Part shown: piece by piece, positions 32,910 through 59,266 of the stretch | Position numbering within the stretch: position 1 is the first letter of the stretch | Layout of the letters: each line of letters starts with the position of its first letter | Virus record (IMG/VR): IMGVR_UViG_3300003937_000082 | Span: 63-64,062 of that record | Length of the DNA stretch: 64,000 bases | Direction: 5' to 3' (one strand) | Origin: a virus | Taxonomy: Duplodnaviria; Caudoviricetes | Position numbers and translations under genes: made by a program | The notes under the pieces: model-generated | The model's database searches: none | Told to the model about the DNA's origin: nothing | The model's input: only the letters and a program-made list of their open reading frames with translations

Positions 32910-35900
32910 ATGACAACTAGAATAAAATCATCCCAGATACTTGACGGTTCAATCGTAGCTTCAGATTTTCACTCAGCTATTCAAATAAACACAACCGCAT
33001 CAGGAACGTTCGGCTCGGTAATCGTAGGCAATTACACTTTAGGAAATAATAGAATATCGACAAGTCAAGCTAGTGGCTATAATGGCGACATAATGTTTGA
33101 TGCATCTGGAGATATCATCTTAGATGCTGATGGAAGTACAGTTAGTTTAAAAGACAACGGTCTCAATTTCGGTCAGTTTTATAATACTTCTTCTGGCGAC
33201 TTTAATATTTATGCACCCCAAGCCGATAAACACATAAAAGTTTTAGGAAATGATGGCGGCTCAACAGTCACAGCCCTAGATTTTGATATGGAACATGCTG
33301 GTCGTGCAACTTTTAACGAGAACATTGTTTTAGGCGGTGATATAGTACACGCAGGCAATCTAACTATAGATGCAGACGGTGATATTACACTAGACGCAAA
33401 TGGCGCAGACATCATCTTAGCAGATAATGCAGTCCCATTCGGTAGATTCAAACGAGAAACTAGTAATCTTGTAATCAAAGCTGAAACCGTAGACAAAGAC
33501 ATCATATTCAGAGGCATTAAATCTGGTAGCCCTAATGTAACCATTGATGCGCTTGTACTCGATATGTCTAACGCTGGTGACGCAACATTTAGCTCCCATG
33601 TGAAAATGGATTCAGGATCCTCTACAGGCAAGTTTGCTGTAATGTCTACGGCTGTACACGGCTCATATGACTTCTACAATAACGGCACGTCATACTTCAA
33701 CGATACTGTCACAGTAGATGGTATTCTTGAAGTTTCTGGTAGTTCAGGAGTTCTTAGAGGTCCATCGACCTTTACGATTGATCCAGCCGTTCACGGTGCT
33801 AACTCAGGCACAGTCGTAATCGCAGGCGATCTTCAAGTAGATGGTACGACAACAACAATTAATTCTACAACCTTAACAGTAGATGATAAGAATATCACAT
33901 TAGCCTCTGGCTCTAATAATAAGGCGGCTGCTACAGGCGCAGGTCTTACAGCAGATTTAGGTAGTGACGGAACTGCAACCTTTGCGTATGATCATACTCA
34001 AGATAGATGGCAGATGAATAAGGGTCTAGAACTACTTAGTGGTGCGGCACTTACAGTCGGCACAGGTACTACTGATGTCGGTAGATTAGAAAGTGTGTCA
34101 GGCGTTTTAGAATTAAACGCATACACTGGTAGACAAATCGCTTTTGGTAATGATACTAACGGAGAGCATGTCCGCATTGATGCTGATGGTCAAGTAGGTA
34201 TCGGTAATAATGACCCGCAAGCTATGCTTCACGTATCTGGTACTGGAGCTCCTGCTATTAGAATACAAGATGATGATGGAACAAATAATTATGCTGACAT
34301 GGGACACAATGGAGGAATTACGACCTTCGTATCAAGAAACAACACAAGTAACGGTAGTTATATTTTCTATGGTTATAATGGTACAACTTTTGATCCTCTG
34401 ATGACATTAGATCCCGCAGGACGTTTAGGCATTAATCAAACTCCTTTATCAAATAATTTTGCGCTTCAAGTTACAGGTATGCAACCAAATGGAAGTGATG
34501 CAAGAGTTATGTATCTTAAAGGCGCTGGAACATCCACGTCAATTGGAAGCACTGGTCCAACACTAGTTTTACAGAATACAGACACTACAGCAAATAATAT
34601 AGTTAAATTAAGTTTTGAATCGGCAAGTGCTGGAGAAACAGTTTCTATAAATGCTATTAATACAAATCATAGCTCACACTATGGTGATATGGCATTCAAT
34701 ACGAGAGGCTCTGCTGGATACTCTGAAAAGATGCGTATTATGGCTAACGGTGAAGTTGGTATCGGAACAAATGATCCAGATGCTAGATTAGGTATTAAAA
34801 GTTCAGGAGCATCTTCATATCCATTACTAATTAAGTCTTCTGACAATCAACAATTATTTAGATTCAGAGAAGAATCTGATACACGTGGTACATTTTACAT
34901 TAACGATGCTAGTGAAAATTCAAAAGTAACCTTAGCAAGTAGTGGACCTTCATCCTTTATGGGTGGCAACGTTGGTATTGGAACAGATTCTCCAGGTGAT
35001 ATCACGTTAAAAGTACACTCTAATGATTCAGACGATTACATTGCAATCTTTAAACAAACCCACGCAAGTAACTTAGGCACAATACAGATTGATACACCTT
35101 CAGATAGTAATGCCCGTCCTTCACGATTAGACTTTGCTAGAGGCGGAGTTAACAAGTGGAAAACCGGTATGGTTTATGGAGATTCCTTAAATGGTTGGGG
35201 ATTGTCTGATGCCACAGGTTCTGGTACTGCATTACAACAAACAAGATTCTTAGTAACGCCAACTGGCAAGGTTAGTATTGGTACGTCAGATCCAGGTACC
35301 AGCAGATTAAAAGTTTACAATAGTACAGTATCAGGCAATACTAGACTTCACGTACATAACGATAAAAATGGTGATGCGGCTGAACTTAGACTTGAAGGTA
35401 AAAGAACATCTAATAACGACACTGGTCAATTATTATACGTTAACTCTGGAAATGTAGTTGCAAGAATTTCCGCAAACTCTTCAGCAGACGATGGAGACTT
35501 AAGATTTTATACAAGTGCAACAGGAACTGGTCAGAACATAGTAGAAGCTATGCGAATTGCCACTACTGGACAAGTTAATATTGGACAGACTCCCGCACTA
35601 GTATCTGGTAACAACCCTAGACACGTACTGCATATAGGAGGAACTACAGTAAATCCTTCATATGAGCAATTGTCTATGTCACCAGGGTCTGTTTCGGGAG
35701 GTGAAAATGCTACTAGAATTAGAATGGCTAATGTGGGTAATGATTTTTACTTAACAAACAACTATTACAATTGGGGCACTCATCGCTTTGATGAGACGAA
35801 TGAGGGTCAAGCGTTCTTCAAGATGTTAGAAGACGGAAGATTCTCCTTTGGTGGGCGATCTTCTGCAAGTACTAGTACTCCTAGCTACAATGCGGCTATT

Positions 35901-36629
35901 AACGGTAATGATGGTAGTATATCTGCTGGTAGCAGTATGACTATGGTCAACGGTATGTCTAAAATGAACGTTGTAGGTAATAGTGATACTAGTGATGAAG
36001 ATGTCGAACTTCGAATGGTCGATTATGATGATACTACAGGTAGTGCTATTCCTACAATATCATTCTATAAAGGCTCTAGTGGTGGACCAGTAAAATTTGC
36101 GTCTCTTAGGGCAAACGATGTACTTGGATTTCAGTTTAGAGATGGATCAAATAATATTGGTGGCTCTAAAGTAGAGATGGGAGCGTTGGACAACAGAGGA
36201 GTTAGACGCCAGACAGCCAGTAACAATTCAAATGTAGGTGTTTACGAGACTTCTATGCAGGTAAATTTTGCTCCGTCAGCCGCAAAATATTTTAGAATTC
36301 AAATGGACGGCAACATTGCGGCAGGACTGAGTTTACATGTTTCAGGAGATTATGGTAATGTAAACGCTATAGGTAGTTTTGAGAAGCGTTATGTTATTGG
36401 CACAAACGCTGTCAACACAGGCAACTATGGTACTGCAAGCACTACTATATGCGATATTGGTCCTACGTCTAGCAAAATTTCGTTAGGCAATACTTCAAAG
36501 CCGAATGCAACAACTTTGTATATTCCTGTGGTAAACCTTGACAGCAACTATAGTATTAATTTTCACTTCGTAGCTACGCTCAGAGGGGAAGTAGGTGGAA
36601 TTACAAGCATAGATATGATAGCACAATAA
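32910..36629 (+). CDS. Long tail fibre protein (array member 1)
   Basis: 1239 aa; DIILDADG repeats, shared RGPSTFTIDPA module, about 6 G.VGIG units and a unique C-terminal tip. Confidence 0.8.
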   Translation: MTTRIKSSQILDGSIVASDFHSAIQINTTASGTFGSVIVGNYTLGNNRISTSQASGYNGDIMFDASGDIILDADGSTVSLKDNGLNFGQFYNTSSGDFNIYAPQADKHIKVLGNDGGSTVTALDFDMEHAGRATFNENIVLGGDIVHAGNLTIDADGDITLDANGADIILADNAVPFGRFKRETSNLVIKAETVDKDIIFRGIKSGSPNVTIDALVLDMSNAGDATFSSHVKMDSGSSTGKFAVMSTAVHGSYDFYNNGTSYFNDTVTVDGILEVSGSSGVLRGPSTFTIDPAVHGANSGTVVIAGDLQVDGTTTTINSTTLTVDDKNITLASGSNNKAAATGAGLTADLGSDGTATFAYDHTQDRWQMNKGLELLSGAALTVGTGTTDVGRLESVSGVLELNAYTGRQIAFGNDTNGEHVRIDADGQVGIGNNDPQAMLHVSGTGAPAIRIQDDDGTNNYADMGHNGGITTFVSRNNTSNGSYIFYGYNGTTFDPLMTLDPAGRLGINQTPLSNNFALQVTGMQPNGSDARVMYLKGAGTSTSIGSTGPTLVLQNTDTTANNIVKLSFESASAGETVSINAINTNHSSHYGDMAFNTRGSAGYSEKMRIMANGEVGIGTNDPDARLGIKSSGASSYPLLIKSSDNQQLFRFREESDTRGTFYINDASENSKVTLASSGPSSFMGGNVGIGTDSPGDITLKVHSNDSDDYIAIFKQTHASNLGTIQIDTPSDSNARPSRLDFARGGVNKWKTGMVYGDSLNGWGLSDATGSGTALQQTRFLVTPTGKVSIGTSDPGTSRLKVYNSTVSGNTRLHVHNDKNGDAAELRLEGKRTSNNDTGQLLYVNSGNVVARISANSSADDGDLRFYTSATGTGQNIVEAMRIATTGQVNIGQTPALVSGNNPRHVLHIGGTTVNPSYEQLSMSPGSVSGGENATRIRMANVGNDFYLTNNYYNWGTHRFDETNEGQAFFKMLEDGRFSFGGRSSASTSTPSYNAAINGNDGSISAGSSMTMVNGMSKMNVVGNSDTSDEDVELRMVDYDDTTGSAIPTISFYKGSSGGPVKFASLRANDVLGFQFRDGSNNIGGSKVEMGALDNRGVRRQTASNNSNVGVYETSMQVNFAPSAAKYFRIQMDGNIAAGLSLHVSGDYGNVNAIGSFEKRYVIGTNAVNTGNYGTASTTICDIGPTSSKISLGNTSKPNATTLYIPVVNLDSNYSINFHFVATLRGEVGGITSIDMIAQ

Positions 36630-36653
36630 TAGAATGGTTAACAAGACCCTTAA

Positions 36654-36714
36654 TATAAATAAGAATGAGAAACGAACAAAATAAACGCTATTGGAGAGTA
36701 ACAAGTGGCAACGA
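36654..36714 (+). promoter_or_regulatory. Late promoter plus conserved leader, type A copy 1
   Basis: TATAAATAAGAAT..ATAAACGCTATTGG.AGAGT..GTGGCAACGA; repeated at 54816-54868. Confidence 0.8.
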
Positions 36715-37328
36715 CTAAAGCATTAGAACTAGCACAATTTGGTACGGGTTTAGTAGTAGATCCTGCCACTGGTTCACAGCAATCGATTGGTGATACGATA
36801 CTGACCGGCGAATTGCATGGTCCATCGACATTCGTTATTGATCCTGCTGTTGTTGGAAATAACACTGGTACAGTTCAGATTAAAGGTGATCTGCAAGTAT
36901 TAGGTACTACTGTAACACTGTCCTCAACGACAATGACTGTTGCAGACCTAAATATTACAGTTGCTCAAGGGGCAGCAAGTGCTGGCGCAGCCGATGGAGC
37001 AGGAATAACAGTAGATGGAGCTGGTGCTACATTTACTTACTCATCTTCTGGCGACAAATGGAATATGAATAAGTCACTCGACACTGACCTAATAGGTAAC
37101 GTGACAGGCACAGTTTCAGACATATCGAACTTTACTACAGCAAATTTGACTGAGCATAGTAGTAGACTATATTATACAAACGCACGTGCAAATAGTGCGA
37201 TAGACACAAGAGTAAATAAAAGTTTTGTAGATAACCTAAATGTAGATGCAGATACATTAGACGGAGTTGATTCTACAGGATTTGACGCCGCTGGGACTGC
37301 ACTAGCACTAGCCATAGCTTTGGGATAA
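36705..37328 (+). CDS. Short fibre protein (array member 2), GTG start
   Basis: 207 aa; consists mostly of the shared GPSTFVIDPA module plus NLTE..LYYTNARA; ends ALALAIALG. Confidence 0.75.
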   Translation: MATTKALELAQFGTGLVVDPATGSQQSIGDTILTGELHGPSTFVIDPAVVGNNTGTVQIKGDLQVLGTTVTLSSTTMTVADLNITVAQGAASAGAADGAGITVDGAGATFTYSSSGDKWNMNKSLDTDLIGNVTGTVSDISNFTTANLTEHSSRLYYTNARANSAIDTRVNKSFVDNLNVDADTLDGVDSTGFDAAGTALALAIALG

Positions 37329-37332
37329 AAAC

Positions 37333-37641
37333 ATGCCGAATACATTTAAAAATTACACGAGTACATCAGTAGGAACAAGTGCAACAACTGTCTACACAGT
37401 TCCTAGTTCAACAGTGGCAGTGACAGTGGGATTAAACATTGCTAACGTTACTGCAAATCAAATCACAGTTGACGTTCAAGCCGCAGGAGCATATGTAGTT
37501 AAAGATACTCCTATACCTGCTGGAGCTGGACTATCTGTACTAGACGGAAAAATAATACTGGAGACCTCTGACACGCTTGTTGTTAAGACAGACACGGCTT
37601 CAAGTGCCGATGTCATACTTAGTGTTCTGGAGCAGAGCTAA
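37333..37641 (+). CDS. Small beta-rich virion protein (M[PA]NTFK family)
   Basis: MPNTFKNY..VYTVP..NIANVT..KIILETSD..DVILSVLE; this family typically follows genes ending in AIALG in marine phages. Confidence 0.7.
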   Translation: MPNTFKNYTSTSVGTSATTVYTVPSSTVAVTVGLNIANVTANQITVDVQAAGAYVVKDTPIPAGAGLSVLDGKIILETSDTLVVKTDTASSADVILSVLEQS

Positions 37642-40600
37642 TGAGTAAGCAAAGTGATTTAGTCGATCTTACACAGATAGGCGAAGGAAACTTATCTGGA
37701 GTTAATGCAACTCTTACTGGATATCTAAGAGGACCAGCTACGTTTGTTATTGATCCTGCTGTACACGGCAACGATTCTGGCACAGTTCAAATTGCTGGCA
37801 ATCTACAGGTTGATGGCACTCAGACCATTATTAACTCGACAACTTTAACCGTAAATGATAAAAACATCGTTCTTGCAAGTGGCGCAGGCAATGCGTCTGC
37901 CGCAACTGGCGCTGGTATTACAGTTGATGGCGCATCAGCAAATATAACTTATACAAGCGCAACAGACCAATGGGACTTTAATAAGAATATTCACATAAGT
38001 AGTTCCTCGAATAAAACATTAATTCTAGATTCCACAATTACAGGATCTTCTTTAACAAGCTTGGCCTTTCAACGGTCAGGAGCAGATAAGTGGAGAATAC
38101 TACAGCAAGCAAATGATAGTCATCTATTATTCTATAATGACATTAGTAACATAGATCAATTTTCTTTAAAATCAAACGGCAACGTTGGTATCGGAACAAT
38201 ATCTCCAGCCGCAACCTTGGAAGTTAAAGCTACAAATTCTGCTTCAACAGATTGGTCTAATAGAGGTATAATGTCGAGTGTCCAAATTAATGCGGCAAAT
38301 AGAACTTTTGGTGGTTTAACGATGGTTGACCACGGAAGTGGATCTGGCCATGCAGGTCTTGGATTTAGATATGACGGATCAGGCTATAAATTAGAACTAG
38401 GTACAGCATCAAGCACAAGTTCAGGAATTAGCACACACTTAACAATAGACCGACTTGGAGCAATAACAACTTCAGGCCATTTAGATGTTGGTAATGAATT
38501 AACTGTACTAGGAACAACTATTCTAAAAAATTCTGGAGTAGTAACAATTAAAGCCGCACCTCTTGGAAGTACTTACGGCGCTGGCTTCAATGTTATGACC
38601 GTAACAGGCACAAGTAGTGCTCCGTATACAAGTACGATTGGGTTTAGTAACTATAGTGAAACAGATGCTATGGTCATAAAAGGCGACAAAGTTGGTATTG
38701 GTGTAGCTCTACCGTCCGCAAAATTTAATGTTGTGGGAGATTCAGGAACGGCCGTTGTAGAAAGCATAAGAAACCCAAATACAGGTTGGAGTCAATACGC
38801 ATTGACTAGATATGGCTCGGAAGGTGCTGATGTCAGGTACATGGATTTTGGTTATTACCGTGGGTCAACTGAAGCAACAAGAGGTTTAGTTGTCAAATCG
38901 CAAGCAAATGCCACTTTAGCTACTTTCTTGGATAATGGCAACGTTGGTATTGGTTTTCCCTCTCCAAACGAAAAACTTCATGTAAATGGCTACATAGAAG
39001 CGGCGTCTGGATATAAACTTGCTAGTCACCCAGTAGTAACTTATGACGGATTTGATGGCGGATACGCTACTCAATTAGGATCAACGGGAACCAGTACACT
39101 CAACGCTACTCGAATATTTGCTGGTGGAAGTGTTCAAGCAACCTTTAAAGGTGGAGTTCTAGGATTAGGAGTTACTCCTGGATCTTGGTCTGCTAACTAT
39201 CCTGCATTACAAATTGGCGGCGGCGCAACCTTTACTGGACATGCAGGTAATACTCAAACACAACTAGGACAAAACTGGTGGATAGGAACAGGAAATCAAT
39301 ATGTCGTAAATGGTGCCGCTTCACGTTTGGTAATGAATCCAGATTCAACGATTATATTTTCACAGGCACCTAGCGGAACTGCAGGTGCGGCTATAAGTAG
39401 TAGTACTGATGTTTTTGTTATCGATACGTCAGGTAGAGTTGGTATTGGCACAGGTGCAGGTGTAGCAACTAATGCACACGCTAATGCCGATGATCTTGTT
39501 ATAGGTAATACATCAACACGTACAGGTATGACTATTGTAAGTGATCCTGCTCAAAGTGGTGCTATACACTTTAGCGATGGTACTTCAACTGGTAATGCTA
39601 ATATCAAAGGTCAAGTTTCATACGAACACGGCGACAACAGTTTTAGGTTTTATATTAACTCTAGTACAGAAGCTCTTAGATTGGGTACTTCTGGAGGTAC
39701 AGTATTTAACAATGGCCAAGATATAAATCAAAACTTCGTTGTTAAAGCTAGTGGTAATGCTAGTGCTTTGGTTATCGATGGTAATGGCGGTGCTGTTGGT
39801 ATCGGTTGTTCTCCAGCGGCTTGGTGGAGTAATTCTACTGCATTACAGGTATCTCCGGTTGGCGCATTGTATAACACAAGTAACTATGAAGATTTCAATA
39901 TAGCCAATAACTCTTACTTTAATAGCACTGGAACTGAGAGGTATATACAAAATGATGCGGCTTGTAAAATAAGATTAACAGATGCGGGTCTAATGGACTT
40001 TAGAGTAGCTGGTGCAGGTACGGCAGGCAATGCAATAACTTGGGACACTGCTATGTCTATCACTGCACTTGGTAGAGTTGGTGTTGGAGTTACACAAACC
40101 GATCCAGTAAAATTTGAAGTAAGCAGTGGAACTGATGAAGATAAAGTCATGAGAATCCGCCTTATAGATGATAACAATAGTAACGCTACTGCTAATCCTT
40201 TCTCTTATGAATATAAAAACTTAGAAATTGAAAATACGTATAGTGGTGCGGCACCAAGTGCTAATGGCACTAAAGTTGCTAAACTACAATTTACGACAGT
40301 AACGGCTTCTGGTTATGCCGCTAGTGCTTCGATTATGGGATTGGCAGAGAGTAATGGTCATGAAGCAGGTGCAATGGTATTTGCAACTGGACCTAATTCA
40401 TCTGGTAATGAAGTTGAACGTATGCGGATTAGTAGAACTGGCGAAGTGACCGTTGAAGGTCCTTTTAATAACAAATCTAATTATATGATGGTTGACTCTA
40501 ATTGGGGTCAATGGTCAGGAAAGTATCAGCATCTAGTATGTCACAACACGATCACGCAAAGTCAAGCTTGGACAGACGTTGCATATGTATCTTATTCTCC

Positions 40601-40892: not shown

Positions 40893-40896
40893 TATA

Positions 40897-41181
40897 ATGA
40901 AGAAAGTATACTTAAAGTTTGAACACTACAGTGCGTGTATATCTCCTATAGCCGAAGCAAACTTAGATGTGAATGATACTAAAGTATTTCAACATCATCC
41001 AGGTTTGGCTAAAGAAACTGGAGAAACGGCTACGGACTCTAACGGAAACGAATATCCTGTTATGGTGCCTGTTCCTGGACATCATATTGATATGTACATT
41101 GAAGATGATGATGAAGTTCCAGAATCATTAAAAGATTTTGTAGTGCCAACACCAGACAATCCAGTACACAGGCTTAGATAA
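40897..41181 (+). CDS. Small acidic protein, putative fibre assembly partner
   Basis: 94 aa, 4 nt after the fibre stop, with an AGAGG RBS; ends FVVPTPDNPVHR. Confidence 0.65.
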   Translation: MKKVYLKFEHYSACISPIAEANLDVNDTKVFQHHPGLAKETGETATDSNGNEYPVMVPVPGHHIDMYIEDDDEVPESLKDFVVPTPDNPVHRLR

Positions 41182-41194
41182 GTGTGTGTCCTAA

Positions 41195-41259
41195 TATAAA
41201 TATAATGATAATAGAATTATTACATAAACTAGGAGCCTAAGAATGGCAGGTTACATCGG
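41195..41259 (+). promoter_or_regulatory. Late promoter plus RBS/start repeat, type B copy 1
   Basis: TATAAATA at 41195-41202; 41202-41259 matches 45242-45299 at 55 of 58 nt and includes AGGAG and ATGGCAGGTTACATCGG. Confidence 0.85.
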
Positions 41260-45018: not shown

Positions 45019-45029
45019 AGGAGAAGATT

Positions 45030-45227: not shown

Positions 45228-45236
45228 GTAGATAAG

Positions 45237-49235: not shown

Positions 49236-49248
49236 AGGATAAACAAAT

Positions 49249-52200
49249 ATGAGTAAAGCCAGAGATTTAGCAGATAGCGCCGATAAGGATATCGCTGGTA
49301 CTATTGTACTTGACGATATAACGCTATCTAATGACATGAGTGTTGCCGATAACGGCAAGGTAATATTTGGTAATGATGCCGACCTTGAGATTTTGTACGA
49401 TACCACTAACAGTATTATCAAAACTACTAACACTCATAGTTTTAAACTTATGAATGGAAGTAGCGACTATATTGTAGCTACTCCTGCTAACGCAGTAACT
49501 TTATATCATAATGGTTCACCAAAACTGGCTACGGCTGCTGGTGGCGCTAATGTAACAGGAACACTTACAGCAGGAAGTGGTATAGCCGTAACCAACGGAA
49601 CTTCTGATTTTTCTAGAACACACTCTACAACTGTTAACACGCTTCAAATTTTAGATTTAAAGGCTACAAGTGCGGGAAATATGGCTGACGGTTTTGGGCC
49701 ATCTATACACTTTTCCGCATCTGATACAGGAACAACTAGTAACCAAGTTGCAGAAATTAATGCAGTGAGAGCAGGGTCTGATACGACATTTAATCTCGAA
49801 TTGCAAACTGCTGATGCTACTAGAATGACTATAGGTAATGGTTTTGTCGATATAACAGGTACTTTAAATCTTTCCAACAACAATACTAACAATACTAATA
49901 AAGAAGGACATTTATTAGCCCGTCAATACGCCTCTGGAACAGAGACAGAAGGTTTTCAGGTATTACAATACTTTTCAAACTCATCCGTTAATAGAATAGA
50001 TGTGGGCGGTGCGGCTTCAACATACAATGCCGCTACTGCAATCAATTTTTATACTGCCGCAAATACAACAACACGAACAGGTACAAATAGATTAGCTATT
50101 GATTCAACTGGTGCTACCTTCACCGATGATGTGTTTGTCGGTGCGGGTGACTATGGAGATAAACTTAATGTAACTGGTACAGGACATTTTACTGGAAATG
50201 TAACTATATCTCGCCAAACTAATGATTCAGGCTCTACAGGTTTGACTTTTGAAAAAACAAGAAGCACTTCTGTAAACGGTAATACAATTGTGAATTCTGG
50301 TGATCAGTTAGGTTATATAGCATTTCGTGGAAATGATGGAGATCAGTTTTTAGACGGTGCTTATATTCTTGCTTTTGTGGACTCTAGCCCAGCCAATAAT
50401 GATATGCCAACTAACTTACAGTTTTGGACAACTGAAGATGGCAATAGTTCTCCTACGGAACGCATGAGAATAGCCCAAGACGGGCGTGTTGGCATTGGTC
50501 TTGGCGGATCTAACCCTTCGTACATGCTTCACGTAGATGGCGGATCTAACCCAGCCGCAAGATTTGAGCAAAACTCTTCCTCTGTACAAATTGGTGAGTT
50601 TAGCAGTGGAGCTGTCATATGGATGGACGGATCTAACGGAGACCTTTCTGGGTCTGACTACTTTGGTATTCATGCCCTAAACACTACTGATTTATCTTTC
50701 AGTGCTGATGGTGGTGTAATACGCATGACTATGAAGAATGATGGTAAACTTGGTATTGGAACAGCGAATCCAAGTGAAAAACTTGAAGTAGCTGGTACAG
50801 CTTTAGTAGAAAACGCTAAATTAAAAGCAATCTCTGAAAACAAGACAGACACAGCAGTTGACGTATTCGTATACGATACACGCAAAGATAGCGATGGTGG
50901 TGCATGGAGAAAGCGTACACAGAACACAAGCTGGTACAACGAAACACTCAACACATCTACTCGTGGAGCAAGAAAAGAATTTCCTTGTGTTGCTGTGATT
51001 GTTGTAAAAACAGACTCCACAGTTGTTATCTATGACGGTGATGATCCTGATATGCCAATGTGGATGGTGTTTAATGTAGCAAATAACACTTGGTTAAAAC
51101 ATTCGGGAAGCGGAGGATGTAAAGCAGTTGTAGCAAGAGATGGTATCATGGTTACAGGTGGAGATATACGAGGATCAATCGTTCGATTTATTGCTGACGA
51201 TGGCAATGTTTTTGAATCCAGTCATAACTACGAACACGATGGCATAGTCACTCGAAATACTTCTGGTGTAGGTCCATCCATTGGTCCTATTAGAATTGTA
51301 CACAACACAGTTAATGATGTAGCGATTACAGTTCTTCCAAATGCTCCTATAGATGCCGACACTGGACTACCTGTACCAACCATTGCAGTAGCTACAAGCG
51401 GTGGTGTGACTGTTATCAAAGACGATGGCAATTGTGTTGATATTACTTATACCACTATTTACAAAATTATTATGTTTATTGACTTCACTAAAGACAATAA
51501 TATTATTTTTGGTAATGACGGTTACACAAGTTTACAGCGATGGGTTAAAGTTTATGAGATTCCATTAACAGATCAAACCGGGAGCAATGGATCAGATAGG
51601 TCAGGCGCACTGTTCCATTATATTCCTTACACAAACACAGGTGCATATGGAGCAAATCCAGAACATATGTTTCCTGAAAACGTAAAGTTACTTGACGTTA
51701 TAAGTAATGCAGTTGCGACAGATGATATTGGAGCTGTTAGAATATCAGATGATGGTAAATTATTAGCTTACATCGCATCAGATTACAATACTGGTTACAT
51801 GAACGCTGATACTAAGTTAGCTACACTTGCAAGCACGGATGATGCTAATATATCTGCATCAGGCAACACAAATCTTTTAGTTGGAGGGTGGACAAACAAC
51901 GGAAGTTTCCCTTACGAAACATTCACACAATCTGGATTAGATATAACTTCAGCTATTAACACGACAGCATATGGCGCTCTCAATAAAACATGGACAGCAG
52001 TACCTGGTAGGACGTATACAGCTAAGTTTAATCTTACACTCAACAGTGGAGTAGCGCCAAGATTGTTTGTGCAAACAACTTCAAGCTTTGGTAACGGACT
52101 AGAGTATCAAACTGTTAACGGAGTGAATTGTTTCACATTTAGAGCAACAATGAGTTCGAGTAGTTACTTTACATTCGCTACAAGCAATGGTGATGCAACA

Positions 52201-53028
52201 AACTTCTCGGTAGCAAATCTAGAGTTATATGAAGGTGGAGTAGCTGATCGTAGTGCAAATCCTATAGGATTATCAGTATTTGGCGGAATTACGAAGACGG
52301 CTGTGGCAACGGGTGCTGACCTTGTGGGGTATTCTTTTGGTAGCAATTCAAACTACTTAGAGCAATCGTATAATAGTGGTCTAGACTTTGGAACAGGTGA
52401 TTTTAGTGTCGTTTGTTGGGTAAAACCCGACTCGTCTATGTCAGCTTATCCTTCTATTGTAAATCGGTATGTAAGTAACAATCAAGAAAGTACTGCTTGG
52501 CTACTAAAGATTGCGGAAGGAACCTCTAGTTACTATTTCTTCAGTAATCAAACACAAATACTTAGTGCAACGGGTACAGTTATTTTTGGTGCCTGGCAAC
52601 AAGTTGCGGCAGTTAGACGTAATGGAATTCTATATCTTTATGTAGATGGAAAGCTAGAAGAAACTGGGGCAATGACTCACACCGTAACTCAAAGTGGAGC
52701 TAAACTTAGCCTATCAAAAGATGCAACGCACCACTTAGGAAATTCTAATTTAGCCTTACTTCGAGTATCAGCTACAGCACCAAGTCCAGAACAAATTGCC
52801 TATATGTACAACCAGGAAAAGCACCTCTTTCGACCAAATGCAAAAGCCTCTCTTTACGGATCTTCAAGTCGGGTAGTAGCACTCGCATATGATGATGGCA
52901 CAGAGCTACTTCATGCCGGTACAAATGCAGGACGTAGCGTGTTTCAAGGACTAACACGTATAGATAATACAACAGATGCAGTGACGCCCGCTATTAGTGC
53001 ATCAAACGGAATGGTAGCAGAGGAATAA
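49249..53028 (+). CDS. Tail fibre / adhesin with C-terminal LamG (ConA-like) domain
   Basis: MSKARDLAD start; AVDVFVYDTRKDSDGGAWRKR domain; LDFGTGDFSVVCWVK..WQQVAAVRRNGILYLYVDG is a LamG-like signature. Confidence 0.8.
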   Translation: MSKARDLADSADKDIAGTIVLDDITLSNDMSVADNGKVIFGNDADLEILYDTTNSIIKTTNTHSFKLMNGSSDYIVATPANAVTLYHNGSPKLATAAGGANVTGTLTAGSGIAVTNGTSDFSRTHSTTVNTLQILDLKATSAGNMADGFGPSIHFSASDTGTTSNQVAEINAVRAGSDTTFNLELQTADATRMTIGNGFVDITGTLNLSNNNTNNTNKEGHLLARQYASGTETEGFQVLQYFSNSSVNRIDVGGAASTYNAATAINFYTAANTTTRTGTNRLAIDSTGATFTDDVFVGAGDYGDKLNVTGTGHFTGNVTISRQTNDSGSTGLTFEKTRSTSVNGNTIVNSGDQLGYIAFRGNDGDQFLDGAYILAFVDSSPANNDMPTNLQFWTTEDGNSSPTERMRIAQDGRVGIGLGGSNPSYMLHVDGGSNPAARFEQNSSSVQIGEFSSGAVIWMDGSNGDLSGSDYFGIHALNTTDLSFSADGGVIRMTMKNDGKLGIGTANPSEKLEVAGTALVENAKLKAISENKTDTAVDVFVYDTRKDSDGGAWRKRTQNTSWYNETLNTSTRGARKEFPCVAVIVVKTDSTVVIYDGDDPDMPMWMVFNVANNTWLKHSGSGGCKAVVARDGIMVTGGDIRGSIVRFIADDGNVFESSHNYEHDGIVTRNTSGVGPSIGPIRIVHNTVNDVAITVLPNAPIDADTGLPVPTIAVATSGGVTVIKDDGNCVDITYTTIYKIIMFIDFTKDNNIIFGNDGYTSLQRWVKVYEIPLTDQTGSNGSDRSGALFHYIPYTNTGAYGANPEHMFPENVKLLDVISNAVATDDIGAVRISDDGKLLAYIASDYNTGYMNADTKLATLASTDDANISASGNTNLLVGGWTNNGSFPYETFTQSGLDITSAINTTAYGALNKTWTAVPGRTYTAKFNLTLNSGVAPRLFVQTTSSFGNGLEYQTVNGVNCFTFRATMSSSSYFTFATSNGDATNFSVANLELYEGGVADRSANPIGLSVFGGITKTAVATGADLVGYSFGSNSNYLEQSYNSGLDFGTGDFSVVCWVKPDSSMSAYPSIVNRYVSNNQESTAWLLKIAEGTSSYYFFSNQTQILSATGTVIFGAWQQVAAVRRNGILYLYVDGKLEETGAMTHTVTQSGAKLSLSKDATHHLGNSNLALLRVSATAPSPEQIAYMYNQEKHLFRPNAKASLYGSSSRVVALAYDDGTELLHAGTNAGRSVFQGLTRIDNTTDAVTPAISASNGMVAEE

Positions 53029-53030
53029 AC

Positions 53031-54134
53031 ATGACAGTAAGAATTACAAAACCAGAGATAAATGTACGTGATAAGCTTGCTGAACTTGACAAGCCAAGTG
53101 GTATTGCTGGTGAAGCAATGCTTCGTGCAGAGACACCGCAAGAACAGTTTGATTTAATTAGTGCTGGACGTAGAAACCTTTTTATAAATGGAGATTTTCG
53201 AATAGCCCAAAGAGGAACTTCACACACATATTCAAATGGTCAATCTGGTTATGATAGTCTAGATAGAATGTATAGTGCAAATTTCTCTAGCGGAACATTA
53301 GCATTGAGTCAGCAACACGCTGGACATGATGGTGTAGATGCGCTAAAATTTTTAAGAGCTACTACAGCTAGTACTGTAGGCGCTAGTGCTACAGCCTATT
53401 CGCAACAAAAAATAGAAGGCATAGAACAGTTTAATAATAAACATGTAACTATATCTTTTATGGTTAAGTCTAATGTCGATACAACCTTTCAATTAAGAAG
53501 AGAGTATAATTATGGTAGTAGTGGTTCAACCACTGAATATGATACCTTTGTAGATGTTCCTGTTACTACTTCATGGACAAAATTTACACATACTTATGAT
53601 GCTATAGATTTCAGTAATAAAACAATAGGATCAAATAACTACTATTCTATTATGTTTTATTGGTCAACCAACCAGGGTTCAAATAAAGTTAGAGATGGTA
53701 ATATTGATATTACAAACGTCCAAATAGACCTCGGTAAAGTAGCCACTCCGTTTGAGTATCGTTCATATGGTGAAGAACTGGCGTTGTGTCAGAGATATTA
53801 TTACAAATGGGCAGGCTCAGTATACGATTTCTGTACTGAAGTTCAAAAACATGGCAGTAATGAGTATAGAGCGGTGATCGATGTACCAGTAGCCTTACGA
53901 CTACGACCAACAATTACCTGGGCTGGTTTAGCGGTATGGTATGCTACAGGAAGTCTGAGCGCAGGTATCACTGCGATAGGAAACGGTTATCAAAGTTCTA
54001 CTAGAACTAATATCACTAGAGTTTCTTTAAATTTAACTCCTAGTAGTATGGCTCTTGCCGCCTATCAAGTAGGAATGTTGAGTGCCGATAGTACAGCTAA
54101 CGAACAATACATTGCATTCGATTCGGAGTTATAA
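53031..54134 (+). CDS. Tail fibre-associated carbohydrate-binding-like protein
   Basis: RRNLFINGDFRIAQRGTS and VQIDLGKVATPFEYRSYGEELALCQRYY motifs, widespread in phage tail proteins. Confidence 0.75.
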   Translation: MTVRITKPEINVRDKLAELDKPSGIAGEAMLRAETPQEQFDLISAGRRNLFINGDFRIAQRGTSHTYSNGQSGYDSLDRMYSANFSSGTLALSQQHAGHDGVDALKFLRATTASTVGASATAYSQQKIEGIEQFNNKHVTISFMVKSNVDTTFQLRREYNYGSSGSTTEYDTFVDVPVTTSWTKFTHTYDAIDFSNKTIGSNNYYSIMFYWSTNQGSNKVRDGNIDITNVQIDLGKVATPFEYRSYGEELALCQRYYYKWAGSVYDFCTEVQKHGSNEYRAVIDVPVALRLRPTITWAGLAVWYATGSLSAGITAIGNGYQSSTRTNITRVSLNLTPSSMALAAYQVGMLSADSTANEQYIAFDSEL

Positions 54135-54136
54135 TA

Positions 54137-54820
54137 ATGAATATACAAACAGTAAAAGTAAAACAACACGACTACTTAGTCAACGGAAACATGTCTGTGC
54201 CCAAATCTCCAGACAATCGACATTATCAAGAGATACTTGATTGGATCAATGCAGGCAATACACCTACTGGACCAGATGTTGTCGAACCAGACTATATTGC
54301 ACTACGCACAGGTCCCGAAGGCTATGCTCCAGTACATGAACAGCTTGCTATGCAAACAGACGGAACTTGGGAAGCCCATATAACAGACGTTAAAACACGT
54401 TTTCCTAAGACTAACAAGGGTAGTACTACTATAGGTGATGTACCTCAGGACTTGCTAGATGCCGCTGCCGATAAACTTGCCGCAAAACAACTCGCAGACT
54501 ACACTACAGCAAAATCTAGATTAGCACAATATATCGTTGCAGATGGTCGTGAAGAAGTTACTGAAAGTCAACGTACACATGAACAAGTTTGGGACGAAGA
54601 TACAGAAGAAATGGTATACGTGATGGCTGATGTCATTACCGTCACTGCTATCGAGCCTGTTGATGCTACAATAACAAGACTGGCATATCTTGATGGGGAT
54701 CCTACAGAAGAAACTATTGAGAACCCTCTCATCACAAAAGATAAAGCAGAGAGAGCCGATGCTCAAGCTATTGTAGACGCAACTCCTTCAAAAGTAGTGG
54801 ACGCATACAACGCTTTATAA
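54137..54820 (+). CDS. Putative tail-fibre assembly chaperone-like protein
   Basis: VPKSPDNRHYQEILDWINAGNTP motif, typically found downstream of ELALCQRYY genes; acidic helical C-terminus. Confidence 0.6.
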   Translation: MNIQTVKVKQHDYLVNGNMSVPKSPDNRHYQEILDWINAGNTPTGPDVVEPDYIALRTGPEGYAPVHEQLAMQTDGTWEAHITDVKTRFPKTNKGSTTIGDVPQDLLDAAADKLAAKQLADYTTAKSRLAQYIVADGREEVTESQRTHEQVWDEDTEEMVYVMADVITVTAIEPVDATITRLAYLDGDPTEETIENPLITKDKAERADAQAIVDATPSKVVDAYNAL

Positions 54821-54868
54821 ATAAGAATATACATAAACGCTATTGGGGAGAGTGAACCTTGGCAACGA
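54816..54868 (+). promoter_or_regulatory. Late promoter plus conserved leader, type A copy 2
   Basis: TATAAATAAGAAT..ATAAACGCTATTGGGGAGAGTGAACC-TTG-GCAACGA; the promoter overlaps the upstream TAA. Confidence 0.8.
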
Positions 54869-57800
54869 ATAGAGATTTCATAGTAAAGAATGGACTATCA
54901 GTGGGTGGCGATATCGCTGTAACTGGTAATGTCACATCAGACTTACACTTAAACGATAATGCCAAAATTAAAATTGGTAGTGCCTCTAATGGCGATCTTC
55001 AGATTTATCACACAACATCAGGTTCAGACGCAAACAACTCTTTCATCGAAGATATCGGTACAGGTAGCTTATATCTGAGAGCAGACACATCAGTAAGAAT
55101 TCAGTCGTACGGTGACAATAACGACATGATTAGGGCTGATAAAGCTGGCGCAGTAACTCTATACCACAATAACGGAGCTCGCCTTGCTACAACAGCAAGC
55201 GGCATAAGCGTGCCAGGAACTGCTTCGATTGGTGAGGTAAGCGTACAAAGTGAATTGTTCTTAGGTTCTTCTTCAAATGGTAAACTAACGCAAAGTGGTT
55301 CAAGTTGGTTATTTCATACTTATGCCAGTGGAGCATTCGGAGAAAGATTTAGAATACTCGATACGGGTGCAAACGTCACTGGTAACTTAGATACAACTAC
55401 ACTAAGTTCAGGCAATATAACAACAACTGGATATCTACGTGGTCCATCGACCTTTACGATTGATCCCGCAACTCACGCTGATAATACTGGAACTGTAGTC
55501 ATTGCTGGTAACTTAACAGTAGACGGTACTCAAACAACAATTAATTCCACAACCTTAACAGTAGATGATAAAAATATTGTATTGGCTTCTGGTGCTGCCG
55601 ATTCGGCTGCCGCAAATGGTGCTGGTATTACTGTAGATGGTGCAAGTGCAACACTCTTATATGCCTCATCTGGTGATAAGTTTGCCTTTAATAAATCTTT
55701 AGATATTACTGGAAATGCAACTGTCAGTGGAGAAGTTAGAACGACAAACGTTAATACGGCTTCTTCCACAGGCGTTCTTGCGCTGTATGGAGGAGCTACA
55801 AATCCTGGAGGTAAGATAGTATTATCAGGTGGTAATAATACTGGTGCTACGGGTTCTGGAATTGCGTTTCACGCTGGTGCTTCTACAGCCAATCCTGCCG
55901 AGCGTATGCGTATTCTCAGTGGTGGTAACGTTGGTATCGGAACAGATGCTCCAGGAACAAAACTTCATGTATCTGCAGGAAGTACAAATGCAAATACTAT
56001 AGTTCGTTTACAGCAAGGAACAACCGCTGGAAACTATAGTGGAATAGAATTAGGAAGAACTGACGGTTCAGGAAATGTTCAGACAACCCCTGCCATATTT
56101 GGAGGAGTTCCTATATCTGGAATAGCAGGTGTAGTAATGGGTTCGACAAATACCGCAATTCCCGCTGTAGCGATTCAATCAGCAAACTCTTCAAATGGAC
56201 ACATCGTATTTAATCCAAAAGGCCAAGAAAAAGTTAGAATTAGTGCGGATGGTAAAGTTGGTATAGGTAATAACGATCCCCAAGGTCGCTTACATCTTAA
56301 TGACTCTGGTACTGCTATACCTACATCGGGCTATGGCACAGGGTTGATGGTTTCACGCACAGACGGTTTGATGGGTACGATGTTTGGTTTTTTAAATAGT
56401 CCACAATCTGGATATTTACAAGGAGCAAACTTTACTAACACAGATACGAAACCTTTTCTCATAAATCCTCGTGGTGGTAACGTTGGTATCGGAACAACTA
56501 ATCCAAGTACTCTTTTAACTGTAAGTGAAACTGCATCAGACCACACAAGTGCCGCTATTTCGATAGAAAACACACAAAATGGTGGTTACGGAGGTATACT
56601 AAATTTTGTAAGCACAAGAGCTGGTACTCAAGTTACCGCCGCTACCATCGGAACTGACGGGATGGAAAATTGGAGTGATGTCGCAAGCACCAGTTCAAAT
56701 TTAAAATTTTCTACAGTCAACGATGGCACTCTTGCGGAAAGAATGCGGATCCACTCATCGGGTAAAGTTGGTATCGGAACGGGAACAAGTATTCCAAGTT
56801 CTTTACTAGAATTAAGAAAAACAACAGCAGGTCTTATCACCGGTGGATCAGGTAACACGGGTCCAGTTCTTACACTTCATCACGAAGCTCAATGGGAAAA
56901 TGGTTATAGCGGAGGAGATTGGTTAGGAGCTATAGATTTCTCTACAGGTGATGCTTCAGTTGGAGAAGGTGTAAGAGCCTCGATAAGAACAACTGTAAAT
57001 AATTATTATAATACACATGCCTTAGCTTTTTATACAGCAAATCAAGGAGATACTACCCTTGATGAGAGAATGCGGATCAAAGAAAACGGCTTAGTTGGTA
57101 TAGGAACACAAAGTCCACTTGCAAAATTACATGTTCGAGGGGATTCAACAGATACTAGACTTTTACTAGAAATGGACGGAGATGATGTAGGCGGAGAAGC
57201 GAAACTTCAATTTAAAGTTGATAGTCAAGATGCTGATACTCGAATTAAAGCCGCAATTATATTTCAAAGAGAGGATCCTGGAACGAGAGGAACAGGTAAT
57301 TTACATTTTGCTGTTGAAGGAAGCAATAACGATACTAATGCTACGACTGCTCATAGCAGAATCATGATTCAATCAGACGGTAATGTTGGTATAGGAAATA
57401 CTAATCCTAAAAGACCCTTACAAATAGGGGAAACAGGTTCTTTCCCTATTTCATTCAACGGCAACTATCCTGATATCCACATGAACACTTACTATGAAAG
57501 TGGCTGGAGAATACACACAGCAGGGTTTGGCGCCAAAACTACTTTCAATGGAGCAACTGGTGCATTTGGATTCTCTAACGTAGCTTCTTCTCAAAGTGCT
57601 GGCGCTAACTTTACTCCTGAAGAAAGACTTACTATTCTAGCTAATGGTAATGTTGGTATAGGAAATACCAACCCAAGTGACAGACTAGTCGTACAAAAAG
57701 ATAGTGCAAATATAGAACCTATACTTGTTATTAAAAATGATAATACCACAGACGATAATGGTACTTCAATAGATTTTTCAGGTAAAGACACTGGCGGCAA

Positions 57801-59037
57801 TAATATAACATATGGTCGTATAGCAGCCATGTATTCTAATCATGCTACTGAAAAATCTCATATGATATTCTCACATAGAAATAACACTGGTAATTTTGCA
57901 CAATGGATGAGAGTAACGCATGATGGTCGTGTTGCTATAGGCGCACATAGTCCTTCAGCCCCATTACATATTCAAACTGCTGACGGCACAACTAATAGTG
58001 CGGTTAATAGTTTAACGATTACAAATTTATCTAGTGGCACTACTACTACAGGGTTTGGTGGAGAGATTAGATTCCAAGCACAAAGAAATAATGGTGTTAA
58101 TCAAAACACTGGTGGCATAAGATCGATTGCAGAAGTTAATGCTGGAACTAATATATCTTCTGGTCTGGCTTTTGATACAGGCACAGCTGGTGTGACCAGT
58201 GAAAAAATGCGTATTACCAATACAGGTATTGTTGATATTGGTAAAGCGGCATTTAGCAATGCTCCTACTGGCTCTAAATTCAATGTATATGGAGATGGCG
58301 AAGTATTTAGACTAGATGGTACTGGCGGCACTTCAAGAACATTCCGATTTAGAAATGTCAGTACAGGTAATCCTGGTATTATTACCGCTGATGGGTCATT
58401 AGAGATTGGCACTGAAGACGCAAATACTTCAATCGGTTTATTGTCCATGAGGGACATAACATATAAAACCACAAAAACAAACAGTACCGCAGGCCATCAT
58501 AAATTCTACAGCCATAACACTGAAATCGTCAGAATTGATGGTCAACACAATAGAGTTGGTATCATGCAATCAAATCCAACTATTCCTCTTGATATAGAGC
58601 CTGATAGTTCTAAGAGAATATTTGGATCTCAACAAAATAATACTCAACATGGTTTCTGTGAATATTTAATTTCTGGTACAATTGGTGCTGGTGCTGTCAC
58701 GATTACGATGCAATGCTCTAGCTATTGGCAAGCTGAAGTTACTGCAACATTCCAGCAATCAAATGGCGGCAGTGATAATAACGTATACTTTAATGGTATT
58801 TGGTCAAATAACCATACAACCCATCTATTTAAAAATAAAACTAATGGCGGAACAGTTCCTCAAATTGGATCTATGGGTGTTACCCCAACATATAGCGTAG
58901 GTGTTGGAGATGCGGCATCCAATAGTGGTAAACTAGTATTCACAAAACCAGCACTTGCAAATAGTTCGGGTACTTATACTGTGAGGGTAGTTGCATATGG
59001 TTATGGTAGTAAAGATATGACATACGTTGTTTCATAA
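54859..59037 (+). CDS. Long tail fibre protein (array member 6), TTG start
   Basis: MATNRDFIVKNGL start; shared stem; about 10 ERMRI..G.VGIG units; unique tip. Confidence 0.82.
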   Translation: MATNRDFIVKNGLSVGGDIAVTGNVTSDLHLNDNAKIKIGSASNGDLQIYHTTSGSDANNSFIEDIGTGSLYLRADTSVRIQSYGDNNDMIRADKAGAVTLYHNNGARLATTASGISVPGTASIGEVSVQSELFLGSSSNGKLTQSGSSWLFHTYASGAFGERFRILDTGANVTGNLDTTTLSSGNITTTGYLRGPSTFTIDPATHADNTGTVVIAGNLTVDGTQTTINSTTLTVDDKNIVLASGAADSAAANGAGITVDGASATLLYASSGDKFAFNKSLDITGNATVSGEVRTTNVNTASSTGVLALYGGATNPGGKIVLSGGNNTGATGSGIAFHAGASTANPAERMRILSGGNVGIGTDAPGTKLHVSAGSTNANTIVRLQQGTTAGNYSGIELGRTDGSGNVQTTPAIFGGVPISGIAGVVMGSTNTAIPAVAIQSANSSNGHIVFNPKGQEKVRISADGKVGIGNNDPQGRLHLNDSGTAIPTSGYGTGLMVSRTDGLMGTMFGFLNSPQSGYLQGANFTNTDTKPFLINPRGGNVGIGTTNPSTLLTVSETASDHTSAAISIENTQNGGYGGILNFVSTRAGTQVTAATIGTDGMENWSDVASTSSNLKFSTVNDGTLAERMRIHSSGKVGIGTGTSIPSSLLELRKTTAGLITGGSGNTGPVLTLHHEAQWENGYSGGDWLGAIDFSTGDASVGEGVRASIRTTVNNYYNTHALAFYTANQGDTTLDERMRIKENGLVGIGTQSPLAKLHVRGDSTDTRLLLEMDGDDVGGEAKLQFKVDSQDADTRIKAAIIFQREDPGTRGTGNLHFAVEGSNNDTNATTAHSRIMIQSDGNVGIGNTNPKRPLQIGETGSFPISFNGNYPDIHMNTYYESGWRIHTAGFGAKTTFNGATGAFGFSNVASSQSAGANFTPEERLTILANGNVGIGNTNPSDRLVVQKDSANIEPILVIKNDNTTDDNGTSIDFSGKDTGGNNITYGRIAAMYSNHATEKSHMIFSHRNNTGNFAQWMRVTHDGRVAIGAHSPSAPLHIQTADGTTNSAVNSLTITNLSSGTTTTGFGGEIRFQAQRNNGVNQNTGGIRSIAEVNAGTNISSGLAFDTGTAGVTSEKMRITNTGIVDIGKAAFSNAPTGSKFNVYGDGEVFRLDGTGGTSRTFRFRNVSTGNPGIITADGSLEIGTEDANTSIGLLSMRDITYKTTKTNSTAGHHKFYSHNTEIVRIDGQHNRVGIMQSNPTIPLDIEPDSSKRIFGSQQNNTQHGFCEYLISGTIGAGAVTITMQCSSYWQAEVTATFQQSNGGSDNNVYFNGIWSNNHTTHLFKNKTNGGTVPQIGSMGVTPTYSVGVGDAASNSGKLVFTKPALANSSGTYTVRVVAYGYGSKDMTYVVS

Positions 59038-59049
59038 GGAGAAATATAA

Positions 59050-59250
59050 ATGAAAATGGTATTTAAAATAGATACAGGTGAAATGATTGCTTACGGGACG
59101 GGAGATGTATCACAATGGTCTGACACTACTGTTTATTACACGCACGTAGCAGAAGATGAAGTATATCCTGGCAATATCACATACACATATGATGGCGAGA
59201 ACGTAATAGAGGGTGATCCTATTGCATTACACGATTTAACGGGCAGCTAA
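59050..59250 (+). CDS. Small acidic protein, putative fibre partner
   Basis: 66 aa with AAGGAG RBS directly after the fibre stop; YTYDGENVI motif. Confidence 0.65.
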   Translation: MKMVFKIDTGEMIAYGTGDVSQWSDTTVYYTHVAEDEVYPGNITYTYDGENVIEGDPIALHDLTGS

Positions 59251-59258
59251 TGCTCACA

Positions 59259-59266
59259 TATAAATA
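59259..59266 (+). promoter_or_regulatory. T4-type late promoter
   Basis: Exact intergenic TATAAATA 33 nt before the gp13 ATG. Confidence 0.85.

Follow-up and report, generated by a model that had tools for sequence, protein, structure and literature searches.

The DNA analysed here, referred to as the window, is a stretch of 64,000 nucleotides (positions 63 to 64,062) of the IMG/VR virus record IMGVR_UViG_3300003937_000082, and it represents nearly all of that record, a 64,062-nt fragment with a completeness of 35%. Between positions 32910 and 59250 it carries an array of tail-fibre genes that share one protein module. This array had been regarded, in an original prediction made from the letters of the DNA, as an enzyme-free intragenomic system that joins any anchor to any shaft and tip, functionally like a shufflon or a diversity-generating retroelement (DGR). 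Upstream of the array, PHROG families of baseplate wedge subunits and large structural proteins are matched; the genes from 29785 to 59037 match tail-fibre families, and the two genes that close the array match head-tail adaptor Ad2 and head closure Hc2, presumably the equivalents of T4 gp13 and gp14. In this marine T4-like myovirus the array is therefore placed with baseplate genes on one side and neck genes on the other. Among named phages, Pelagibacter phage Mosig, Methylophilales phage Melnitz and marine cyanomyoviruses match the protein encoded at 29785-31857 best. At the DNA level, megablast of 32910-45000 against 50,697 phage records returned zero relatives.

The claim that six genes with five different N-termini carry a common module was confirmed for six plus-strand open reading frames (ORFs), here named A to E and G. 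A search of the window's own record recovered these six copies at E values from 5e-24 to 8e-62, together with a seventh, which the original prediction had overlooked; this one is divergent (35% identity, E 4.8e-9) and lies in the preceding gene "pre". The fibre genes and their neighbours are as follows.

29785-31857, + strand: pre, a 690-aa fibre-like structural protein matching PHROG structural and short-tail-fibre families
about 31129-31386, + strand: divergent module of pre (module HMM E 6.6e-7)
31952-32908, + strand: X, a 318-aa fibre-related protein with DUF4183
32910-36629, + strand: A, 1239 aa, starting MTTRIK; 281-aa anchor, shaft with GxVGIG repeats, and tip
33753-34031, + strand: module of A
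36705-37328, + strand: B, 207 aa, starting MATTKA from a GTG codon; short anchor and module
36813-37082, + strand: module of B
37333-37641, + strand: s1, a 102-aa ORF between B and C
37641-40892, + strand: C, 1083 aa, starting MSKQSD; 28-aa N-terminus, module, shaft and tip
37725-37997, + strand: module of C
40897-41181, + strand: c2, a small ORF directly after C
41243-44443, + strand: D, 1066 aa, MAGYIG anchor; followed by ORFs at 44443-45018 and 45030-45227
41639-41929, + strand: module of D
45283-49002, + strand: E, 1239 aa, MAGYIG anchor; followed by a small ORF at 49002-49235
45577-45846, + strand: module of E
49249-53028, + strand: F, 1259 aa, inside the array and without the module
53031-54134, + strand: F2, fibre-like
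54137-54820, + strand: F3
54859-59037, + strand: G, 1392 aa, starting MATNRD from a TTG codon; seven GxVGIG repeats
55435-55707, + strand: module of G
59050-59250, + strand: g2, a small ORF after G
59300-61047, + strand: the two neck genes closing the array

The module is about 91 aa long and begins with LRGPSTFTIDPA, encoded from nucleotides 33753, 36813, 37725, 41639, 45577 and 55435. Outside it, the fibre proteins align at only 18-28% identity, and they do so through repeated shaft motifs such as GNVGIGT. The statement that the sequence flanking the module is unrelated thus stands for most of the proteins and fails for the anchors of D and E, which are homologous; alignments with the short protein B, which consist mostly of the module, also show higher identity.

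The copies of the module are old. Their amino acid identity ranges from 49 to 69% and their nucleotide identity from 54 to 67%, and at identical degenerate residues the same codon is used in 349 of 815 cases (0.43), close to the 0.39 expected from the codon usage of the fibre genes. Nei-Gojobori (NG86) dS values lie between 1.08 and 3.48 in 12 pairs and are not computable in the other 3, so that synonymous sites between the copies are saturated. A copy from the same genome is not more similar than one from elsewhere. Mean amino acid identity is 0.61 within the window, 0.59 between window copies and foreign copies and 0.60 among foreign copies, the comparison set being 91 foreign copies (79 distinct) from 80 IMG/VR loci. 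For five of the six window copies, between 4 and 33 of these 91 are closer than the nearest copy in the own genome, E being the exception. In the maximum-likelihood tree the six copies require 5 label changes (mean of shuffled labels, 5.9), B groups with a copy from locus L121 (support 98) and D with one from L132 (support 95). A single clade for the six is rejected by the AU test (lnL difference 127.9, p 0.004). The copies are thus polyphyletic and separately derived, and their parity of identity with foreign copies, the tree and the AU test together indicate that no concerted evolution has homogenised them.

Against this divergent background, short tracts of near-identical DNA connect particular pairs of copies, the longest exact homology being 26 nt. 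All four tracts named in the original prediction are present, that of D and E beginning at 41715 and not, as had been given, at 41714.

37710-37736 and 41624-41650, + strand: C/D tract, 26 of 27 nt
33759-33784 and 55441-55466, + strand: A/G tract 1, 26 nt exact
33851-33895 and 55533-55577, + strand: A/G tract 2, 45 nt with 2 mismatches
41715-41739 and 45653-45677, + strand: D/E tract, an exact 25-mer

With 1 mismatch allowed, the D/E tract extends over 35 nt (41705-41739 and 45643-45677) and encodes IAG(N/D)LTVNGTTT. Recombination between copies had been read from these tracts, and the statistics place only A/G and D/E beyond chance. When codons were redrawn 2,000 times according to the usage of the fibre genes (15 pairs), exact runs as long as those observed were improbable for A/G (p 0.002) and D/E (p 0.001), while the remaining 13 pairs gave p >= 0.06; the family-wise p was 0.0085 for exact runs and 0.001 when 1 or 2 mismatches were allowed. 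A GENECONV-style permutation, which had been named as a check on the prediction, was run on 232 polymorphic of 309 sites with 5,000 permutations and returned a global p of 0.0024 for each of these two pairs. The tract of C and D, with a pairwise p of 0.012 but a global p of 0.11, is not beyond chance and was discarded as evidence.

The foreign copies served as an empirical null. In all 474 pairs of a window copy with a foreign one, exact identity in register stays at 20 nt or less, and neither the A/G 26-mer nor the D/E 25-mer occurs elsewhere across 2.9 million IMG/VR contigs. With all genomes pooled, tracts of at least 25 nt were found in 4 of 36 same-genome pairs and in 13 of 3,156 pairs from different contigs with similar protein identity (Fisher p 2.9e-5). 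Two of these four same-genome pairs belong to the window; the other two are repeats within a single ORF. In locus L116, module copies of one long ORF (1804-2076 and 4528-4803) share an exact 58 nt, and in L138 those at 6004-6276 and 8365-8640 share an exact 27 nt; patchy identity is thus found among intragenic repeats as well. Short-patch gene conversion between co-resident copies would be the simplest explanation of the tracts.

A second set of observations concerns the boundaries of whole genes. An octamer, TATAAATA, which we take to be the T4 late-promoter consensus, lies 34-51 nt upstream of five genes, and two of its copies delimit G together with g2.

29751-29758, + strand: TATAAATA upstream of pre
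36654-36661, + strand: TATAAATA upstream of B
41195-41202, + strand: TATAAATA upstream of D
54816-54823, + strand: TATAAATA upstream of G
59259-59266, + strand: TATAAATA upstream of the neck gene
54816-59266, + strand: G-g2 cassette, about 4.4 kb between the direct repeats at 54816-54823 and 59259-59266

The octamer as such is not significantly enriched (12 matches against 7.0 expected, a total reached by 7 of 100 shuffles), and only the positions of the matches are informative; judged from this promoter motif, the fibre genes may be expressed late. G is missing from seven loci (L001, L002, L003, L005, L008, L010 and L011) that encode a neck protein with 77-91% identity to that of the window, and there homologues of F, F2 or F3 directly precede the neck gene. 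The junction was read in six of them (all except L010), and in 6 of 6 it falls exactly at a single TATAAATA, with the end of F3 or F2 on its left and the leader of the window's neck gene on its right. In L003, by manual count, 28 of 30 nt to the left and 45 of 47 nt to the right match the window. The alignment of these junctions indicates that G-g2 has been gained or lost exactly at the late-promoter-like repeat.

Some genes of the array also share their 5' ends. D and E have in common a cassette of 58 nt with 95% identity (41202-41259 and 45242-45299), which comprises the leader, the ribosome-binding site and the first six codons, while the anchors that follow are only about 24-40% identical. 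In relative G004 the D-type gene has a different leader, and the cassette is not preserved there. B and G, which start with GTG and TTG, share a promoter and leader cassette (36654-36720 and 54816-54875). Its leader and start region recurs upstream of the fibre gene at the position of G in relative G002, and its ribosome-binding and start region at the B orthologue of relative G001; the corresponding positions are about 800-880 in L103 and near 1854, minus strand, in L162. Scans of 40000-59800 for sigma-70 promoters (53 sites, 58 in shuffles) and for terminators (10 sites, 11.9 in shuffles) revealed no excess, and neither 54800-54860 nor 59240-59300 contained a listed stem-loop of terminator type.

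Reassorted relatives, whose existence the original prediction had left as a point on which it could fail, do exist (G001, G002, G005 and G003), and on protein similarity they carry other combinations of anchor, module, shaft and tip. The closest relative of the upstream part is G001, in which pre and X are 74% identical to those of the window, B 79% and s1 92% (71% in G004). There, the gene after X (1,463 aa) starts with an anchor of A type, continues with the second half of a module of D type and has a body of F type; F2, B, s1 and a C-like gene come next in that order. Between F3 and a neck gene (80%), G002 encodes a fibre with the 5' cassette and first 28 aa of G, a G-like module and an A-like shaft (35-40%), the similarity to the A shaft beginning 34 aa after the module. 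In G005, an X-like N-terminus and a module are joined to a tip of C type (56%, from aa 902), after which comes a homologue of c2 (60%). G003 holds the F body by itself (808 aa, from aa 519), and G004 encodes short proteins of the D- and E-anchor type without the module, their similarity stopping 13-17 aa before the module position. Junctions thus lie at the module or within about 35 aa of it in G001, G002 and G004, and far from it in G005, G003 and L159, where the similarity to the G tip starts at aa 1233; the F body likewise begins at aa 519 in L001-L011. At 34-79% amino acid identity these relatives are too divergent for breakpoints to be mapped at the DNA level. A has no close IMG/VR relative, and as a query it retrieved only one weak locus (L081, 37% over aa 419-802). 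The relatives represent the classical mosaicism of T4-type fibre genes, as described in PMC2993671, PMC1079782 and PMC3157838.

The locus itself is stable on a scale of years. Of the 31-mers sampled from 41000-49200, a fraction of 0.79-0.99 was present in 20 of 24 listed runs, which belong to 17 seawater or marine studies from 2015 to 2025 (four of the 20 may be the source sample), so the phage is widespread. Contigs from three runs (2015, 2018 and 2025) cover 30 of 30 bins of 33000-52999, and collinear pieces with 0-9 differences span gene junctions and modules.

36044-39920: collinear piece covering the end of A, B, s1 and C
40212-41630: collinear piece
41230-41994: collinear piece
45270-47505: collinear piece
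48143-50174: collinear piece

Because collinear contigs come from different years, misassembly is ruled out, which had been another point on which the prediction could fail, and fast turnover is argued against. Contig comparison flagged 48 joints, and these were considered as possible chimeras and rejected; in the 15 that were listed the shorter side measures 20-38 nt (at a likeness threshold of 85%), and several come from contigs of other depth. One joint has 22 unmatched letters between its sides, which restore the register of the module. The joints fit foreign fibre genes, from other organisms or repeats, that map piecewise.

The module occurs far beyond this array. A profile of the six copies has matches (E <= 1e-5) in at least 6,931 proteins, 7,999 candidates having been scored, and many of the matching proteins also contain the PF13884 chaperone domain. 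In fetched proteins it is found once, twice or five times (by eye, five full copies in P0004 and two in P0016), and one fetched protein shows, by eye, many tandem repeats of the first half of the module. In the 80 loci reached through the neck gene, the module HMM gave divergent matches only. Zero Pfam families match the module, a profile search of PDB sequences reached a best E of 0.11 with none matching, and in the ESM Atlas only unnamed viral clusters were hit. Being abundant and without a Pfam family or a PDB relative, it may merit a curated family of its own. The AlphaFold2 monomer (79 sequences) is an extended chain ending in a small sheet, with a pLDDT of 92. Foldseek found zero PDB matches for it at E <= 0.001, as expected for the model of an extended single chain taken out of a trimer. 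Modelled in three copies, the module scored 0.74, the best of 3 controls scoring 0.00; runs agreed in at least 82% of contacts with a pLDDT of at least 78. Of proteins solved as one-chain pairs, 20 of 30 scored as high as 0.74, and so did 1 of 23 solved as single chains; these counts hold only roughly here because the module was run with its own alignment and in three copies. These models favour reading the module as a generic segment of phage fibres in which three chains intertwine, probably kept for structural reasons.

Several features at the distal ends of the fibre genes deserve mention. Small ORFs of 65-102 aa follow large fibre genes at 37333-37641, 40897-41181, 45030-45227, 49002-49235 and 59050-59250; they have no known family, apart from s1, which belongs to two PHROGs of function unknown. 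These ORFs may encode tip-specific assembly chaperones. A tip and its small ORF are inherited together in at least one case, because in G005 the C-type tip is followed by the c2 homologue. F, F2 and F3 form a conserved block (49249-54820) that is also found in relatives. A Laminin_G_3 or concanavalin-A-like lectin domain (E 3.3e-14) lies in the C-terminal part of F (aa 1045-1184, 52381-52800), suggesting that its tip binds carbohydrate. Directly upstream of the array, an 826-aa minus-strand ORF (26678-29158) breaks the plus-strand structural run. Further upstream lie very large ORFs of 1,802, 1,035, 1,390, 1,108 and 821 aa (4419-9827 and 12609-25685), of which any PHROG matches are families named "virion structural protein" or of function unknown. 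Distal long-tail-fibre families are matched by the gene at 10002-11195 (397 aa), and the phage may carry yet further fibre-like proteins beyond the array.

A comparison with known systems places the locus more precisely. Like shufflons and the invertible segments of the Gin/Cin/Min type, as these are commonly understood, it holds alternative receptor-binding C-termini in one locus behind shared sequence. Here, in contrast, the genes are complete, each has its own start, and all module copies and fibre genes lie on the plus strand. Inverted crossover sites were not found, the inverted repeats being limited to 16 scattered pairs of 18-31 nt with 71-90% complementarity, and the resolvase family PF00239 gave 0 matches in the 64,062-nt record (35% of the genome; tyrosine recombinases were not searched). 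The likeness to DGRs, again as commonly understood, is that the target would be a receptor-binding protein of a phage. The variation in this locus nevertheless concerns whole domains and not adenine-specific point changes, and reverse transcriptases (PF00078) gave 0 matches in the record (35% complete). A pair of template and variable repeats was not found, the direct-repeat families being module or motif copies of 60-85% identity and the D/E 5' cassette the sole near-identical pair. The expectation that reverse transcriptase and resolvase-type invertase would be absent from these 64 kb was thus correct, and since meaningful inverted repeats and a template/variable pair are missing too, the locus is neither a shufflon nor a DGR. 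Because the copies are direct repeats, a crossover between them would delete or duplicate the intervening genes and not toggle them.

T5-like phage DT57C (PMC4728585) and phage phiKp24 (PMC9700779) reportedly possess several or branched receptor-binding proteins. They share with the array the side-by-side encoding of different fibre proteins with different N-terminal anchors, an arrangement from which the virion may carry more than one receptor-binding protein. Closer still are the mosaic fibre loci of T-even and other T4-type phages, in which recombination at conserved motifs has been described (Tetart et al., 1998, as cited in PMC1079782 and PMC3157838). In both, otherwise divergent fibre genes have a conserved motif in common, relatives are chimeric, and there are short patches of DNA identity; in the relatives of this phage some junctions seem, at the protein level, to lie at or near the module. 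They differ in that the T-even motifs are His-boxes or glycine-rich motifs in gp37 and gp38, whereas an entire domain of about 91 aa is shared here by at least seven co-resident genes. Moreover, recombinants with altered host range recovered in experiments belong to the T-even type, whereas this uncultured phage is known from metagenomes, and many junctions of its relatives lie elsewhere. A further parallel is offered by PeSLs, which consist of an early sigma-70-like promoter with a stem-loop terminator and shuffle in hyperplastic regions of non-essential genes, as stated in PMC2839356 (see also Comeau et al., 2014, PMC4122927). The G-g2 cassette likewise differs in presence among close relatives, with a repeated promoter sequence exactly at its borders, and paralogous genes (D/E and B/G) likewise share 5' regulatory cassettes. 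In this locus, by contrast, the repeat is an 8-nt late-promoter-like TATAAATA in a structural region, and no stem-loop stands beside it in the scanned 40000-59800.

Taken together, the locus is very probably a cluster of ancient paralogous fibre genes, at least seven in number, that is stable and displays ordinary, slow tail-fibre mosaicism, and not a working generator of diversity. An abundant marine T4-like myovirus would have its receptor-binding genes gathered here, the paralogues (at least seven, expressed late) giving rise to separate homotrimeric fibres. Each fibre would comprise an N-terminal anchor, the intertwined-trimer module of about 91 aa, a shaft of GxVGIG-type repeats and a distinct tip, and most fibre genes would be followed by a small ORF for a possible tip-specific chaperone. 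The module would be a widespread structural domain kept by purifying selection on the protein rather than homogenised by recombination. The cluster would have been built over a long time by exchange between phages at domain boundaries, by the acquisition or loss of entire gene cassettes where late-promoter repeats lie and by occasional short-patch gene conversion between co-resident module copies, and the locus would be neither a programmed nor a high-rate generator of diversity. Several points weigh against this view. Late expression, trimer formation and the role of the chaperones are predictions. The tracts and the reassorted relatives show recombination acting, so that denying the locus any role in diversification would be too strong. 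The anchor of the chimeric G001 gene joins inside the module at GNLTV, by eye the same stretch as the D/E tract, which fits a module that is sometimes a crossover site. The intra-ORF repeats of L116 and L138, which contribute half of the long same-genome tracts, are not comparable with copies in separate genes. Rare variants are lost from Logan contigs, the single raw-read run did not contain the phage (4 low-likeness reads), and rare chimeric genomes may lie below the resolution of contigs. Finally, a recombinase or reverse transcriptase may be encoded in the rest of the genome, of which the record covers 35%.

The active enzyme-free system of the original prediction, which like a shufflon or DGR would continually make virions with new combinations of anchor, shaft and tip, is very unlikely. 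It could draw on the presence of one common module in genes of a single locus, on the two pairs with tracts beyond chance and on the efficient recombination of T4-like phages (PMC2993671). Nevertheless, the copies are polyphyletic with dS of at least 1.08 wherever it could be computed, their background nucleotide identity is 54-67%, and their synonymous codons agree about as often as codon usage predicts, a result that the original prediction had itself named as one that would refute it. They are direct repeats without inverted ones of note, runs dated between 2015 and 2025 contain the locus in near-identical form, and the 15 listed of the 48 contig joints have 38 nt or less on their shorter side and involve contigs of other depth. 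In addition, the junctions of relatives fall at several domain boundaries and promoters, not at the module alone. A slower variant deserves more weight, though it too is doubtful: the module and the shared 5' cassettes would be the main joining site in evolution, as in the Tetart/Krisch model applied within one genome, at a low rate that is yet relevant to host range, with the co-resident genes as a bank of cassettes. The A/G and D/E tracts and the enrichment of long tracts in same-genome pairs (4/36 against 13/3,156) agree with it, as do the G001 junction at GNLTV between A-type anchor and D-type module half, the end of D/E-anchor similarity 13-17 aa before the module position in G004 and the start of A-shaft similarity 34 aa after the module in G002. 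Against it stand the junctions far from the module (aa 902 in G005, aa 1233 in L159, aa 519 in G003 and L001-L011), amino acid identities of 34-79% that leave DNA breakpoints unmappable, exact homology of at most 26 nt, the loss of intervening genes that a crossover between direct repeats would entail, and zero well-supported chimeric contigs among those compared.

The tracts might also have arisen without any exchange, by chance combined with local constraint on codons or nucleotides (mRNA structure, translation speed) or by uneven decay after an old duplication, which we consider unlikely. Their length is a mere 25-45 nt and they fall within the best-conserved stretches of the protein, the codon-redraw null ignores codon context, and 13 of 3,156 unrelated pairs also reach 25 nt. 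However, 0 of 474 window-to-foreign pairs exceed 20 nt, both oligomers are absent from the other contigs of IMG/VR, and the excess is specific to same-genome pairs. Two independent tests agree, with a global p of about 0.002, and D and E share a 58-nt cassette at 95% identity that is not conserved in G004. That the array is an assembly artefact, in which the repeated module led to a chimeric or collapsed metagenome assembly, can be dismissed almost entirely. Repeats can indeed mis-join short-read assemblies, and some contigs end at module borders (40212-41630), but contigs of three runs are collinear across junctions and modules with 0-9 differences, and 20 runs contain the D-E stretch. An old and stable cluster of paralogous fibre genes, reshaped slowly, thus remains the preferred reading.

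Tail fibres set the host range of phages, and how host range changes in marine T4-like phages of streamlined hosts is poorly known. No new diversity generator is revealed by this locus. It provides statistical evidence that module copies within one genome exchange short patches, and it brings to light a very common, uncurated fibre domain, predicted to form trimers, that marks the border between anchor and shaft. The G-g2 cassette is a clean case of a whole fibre gene gained or lost at a late-promoter repeat, which, if general, would carry the PeSL idea over from early promoters to late ones. It is conceivable, if improbable, that the module and the late-promoter and leader cassettes serve as portable homology for occasional short-homology swaps between co-resident or co-infecting copies. 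In that case, the identity tracts and the G cassette bounded by TATAAATA would be the footprints of such a cassette bank. With the recurrence of this phage in 17 seawater studies over ten years, these ideas are testable on population data. If the cassette bank proved true, it would constitute a low-rate, enzyme-independent route to new host ranges for abundant marine T4-like phages.

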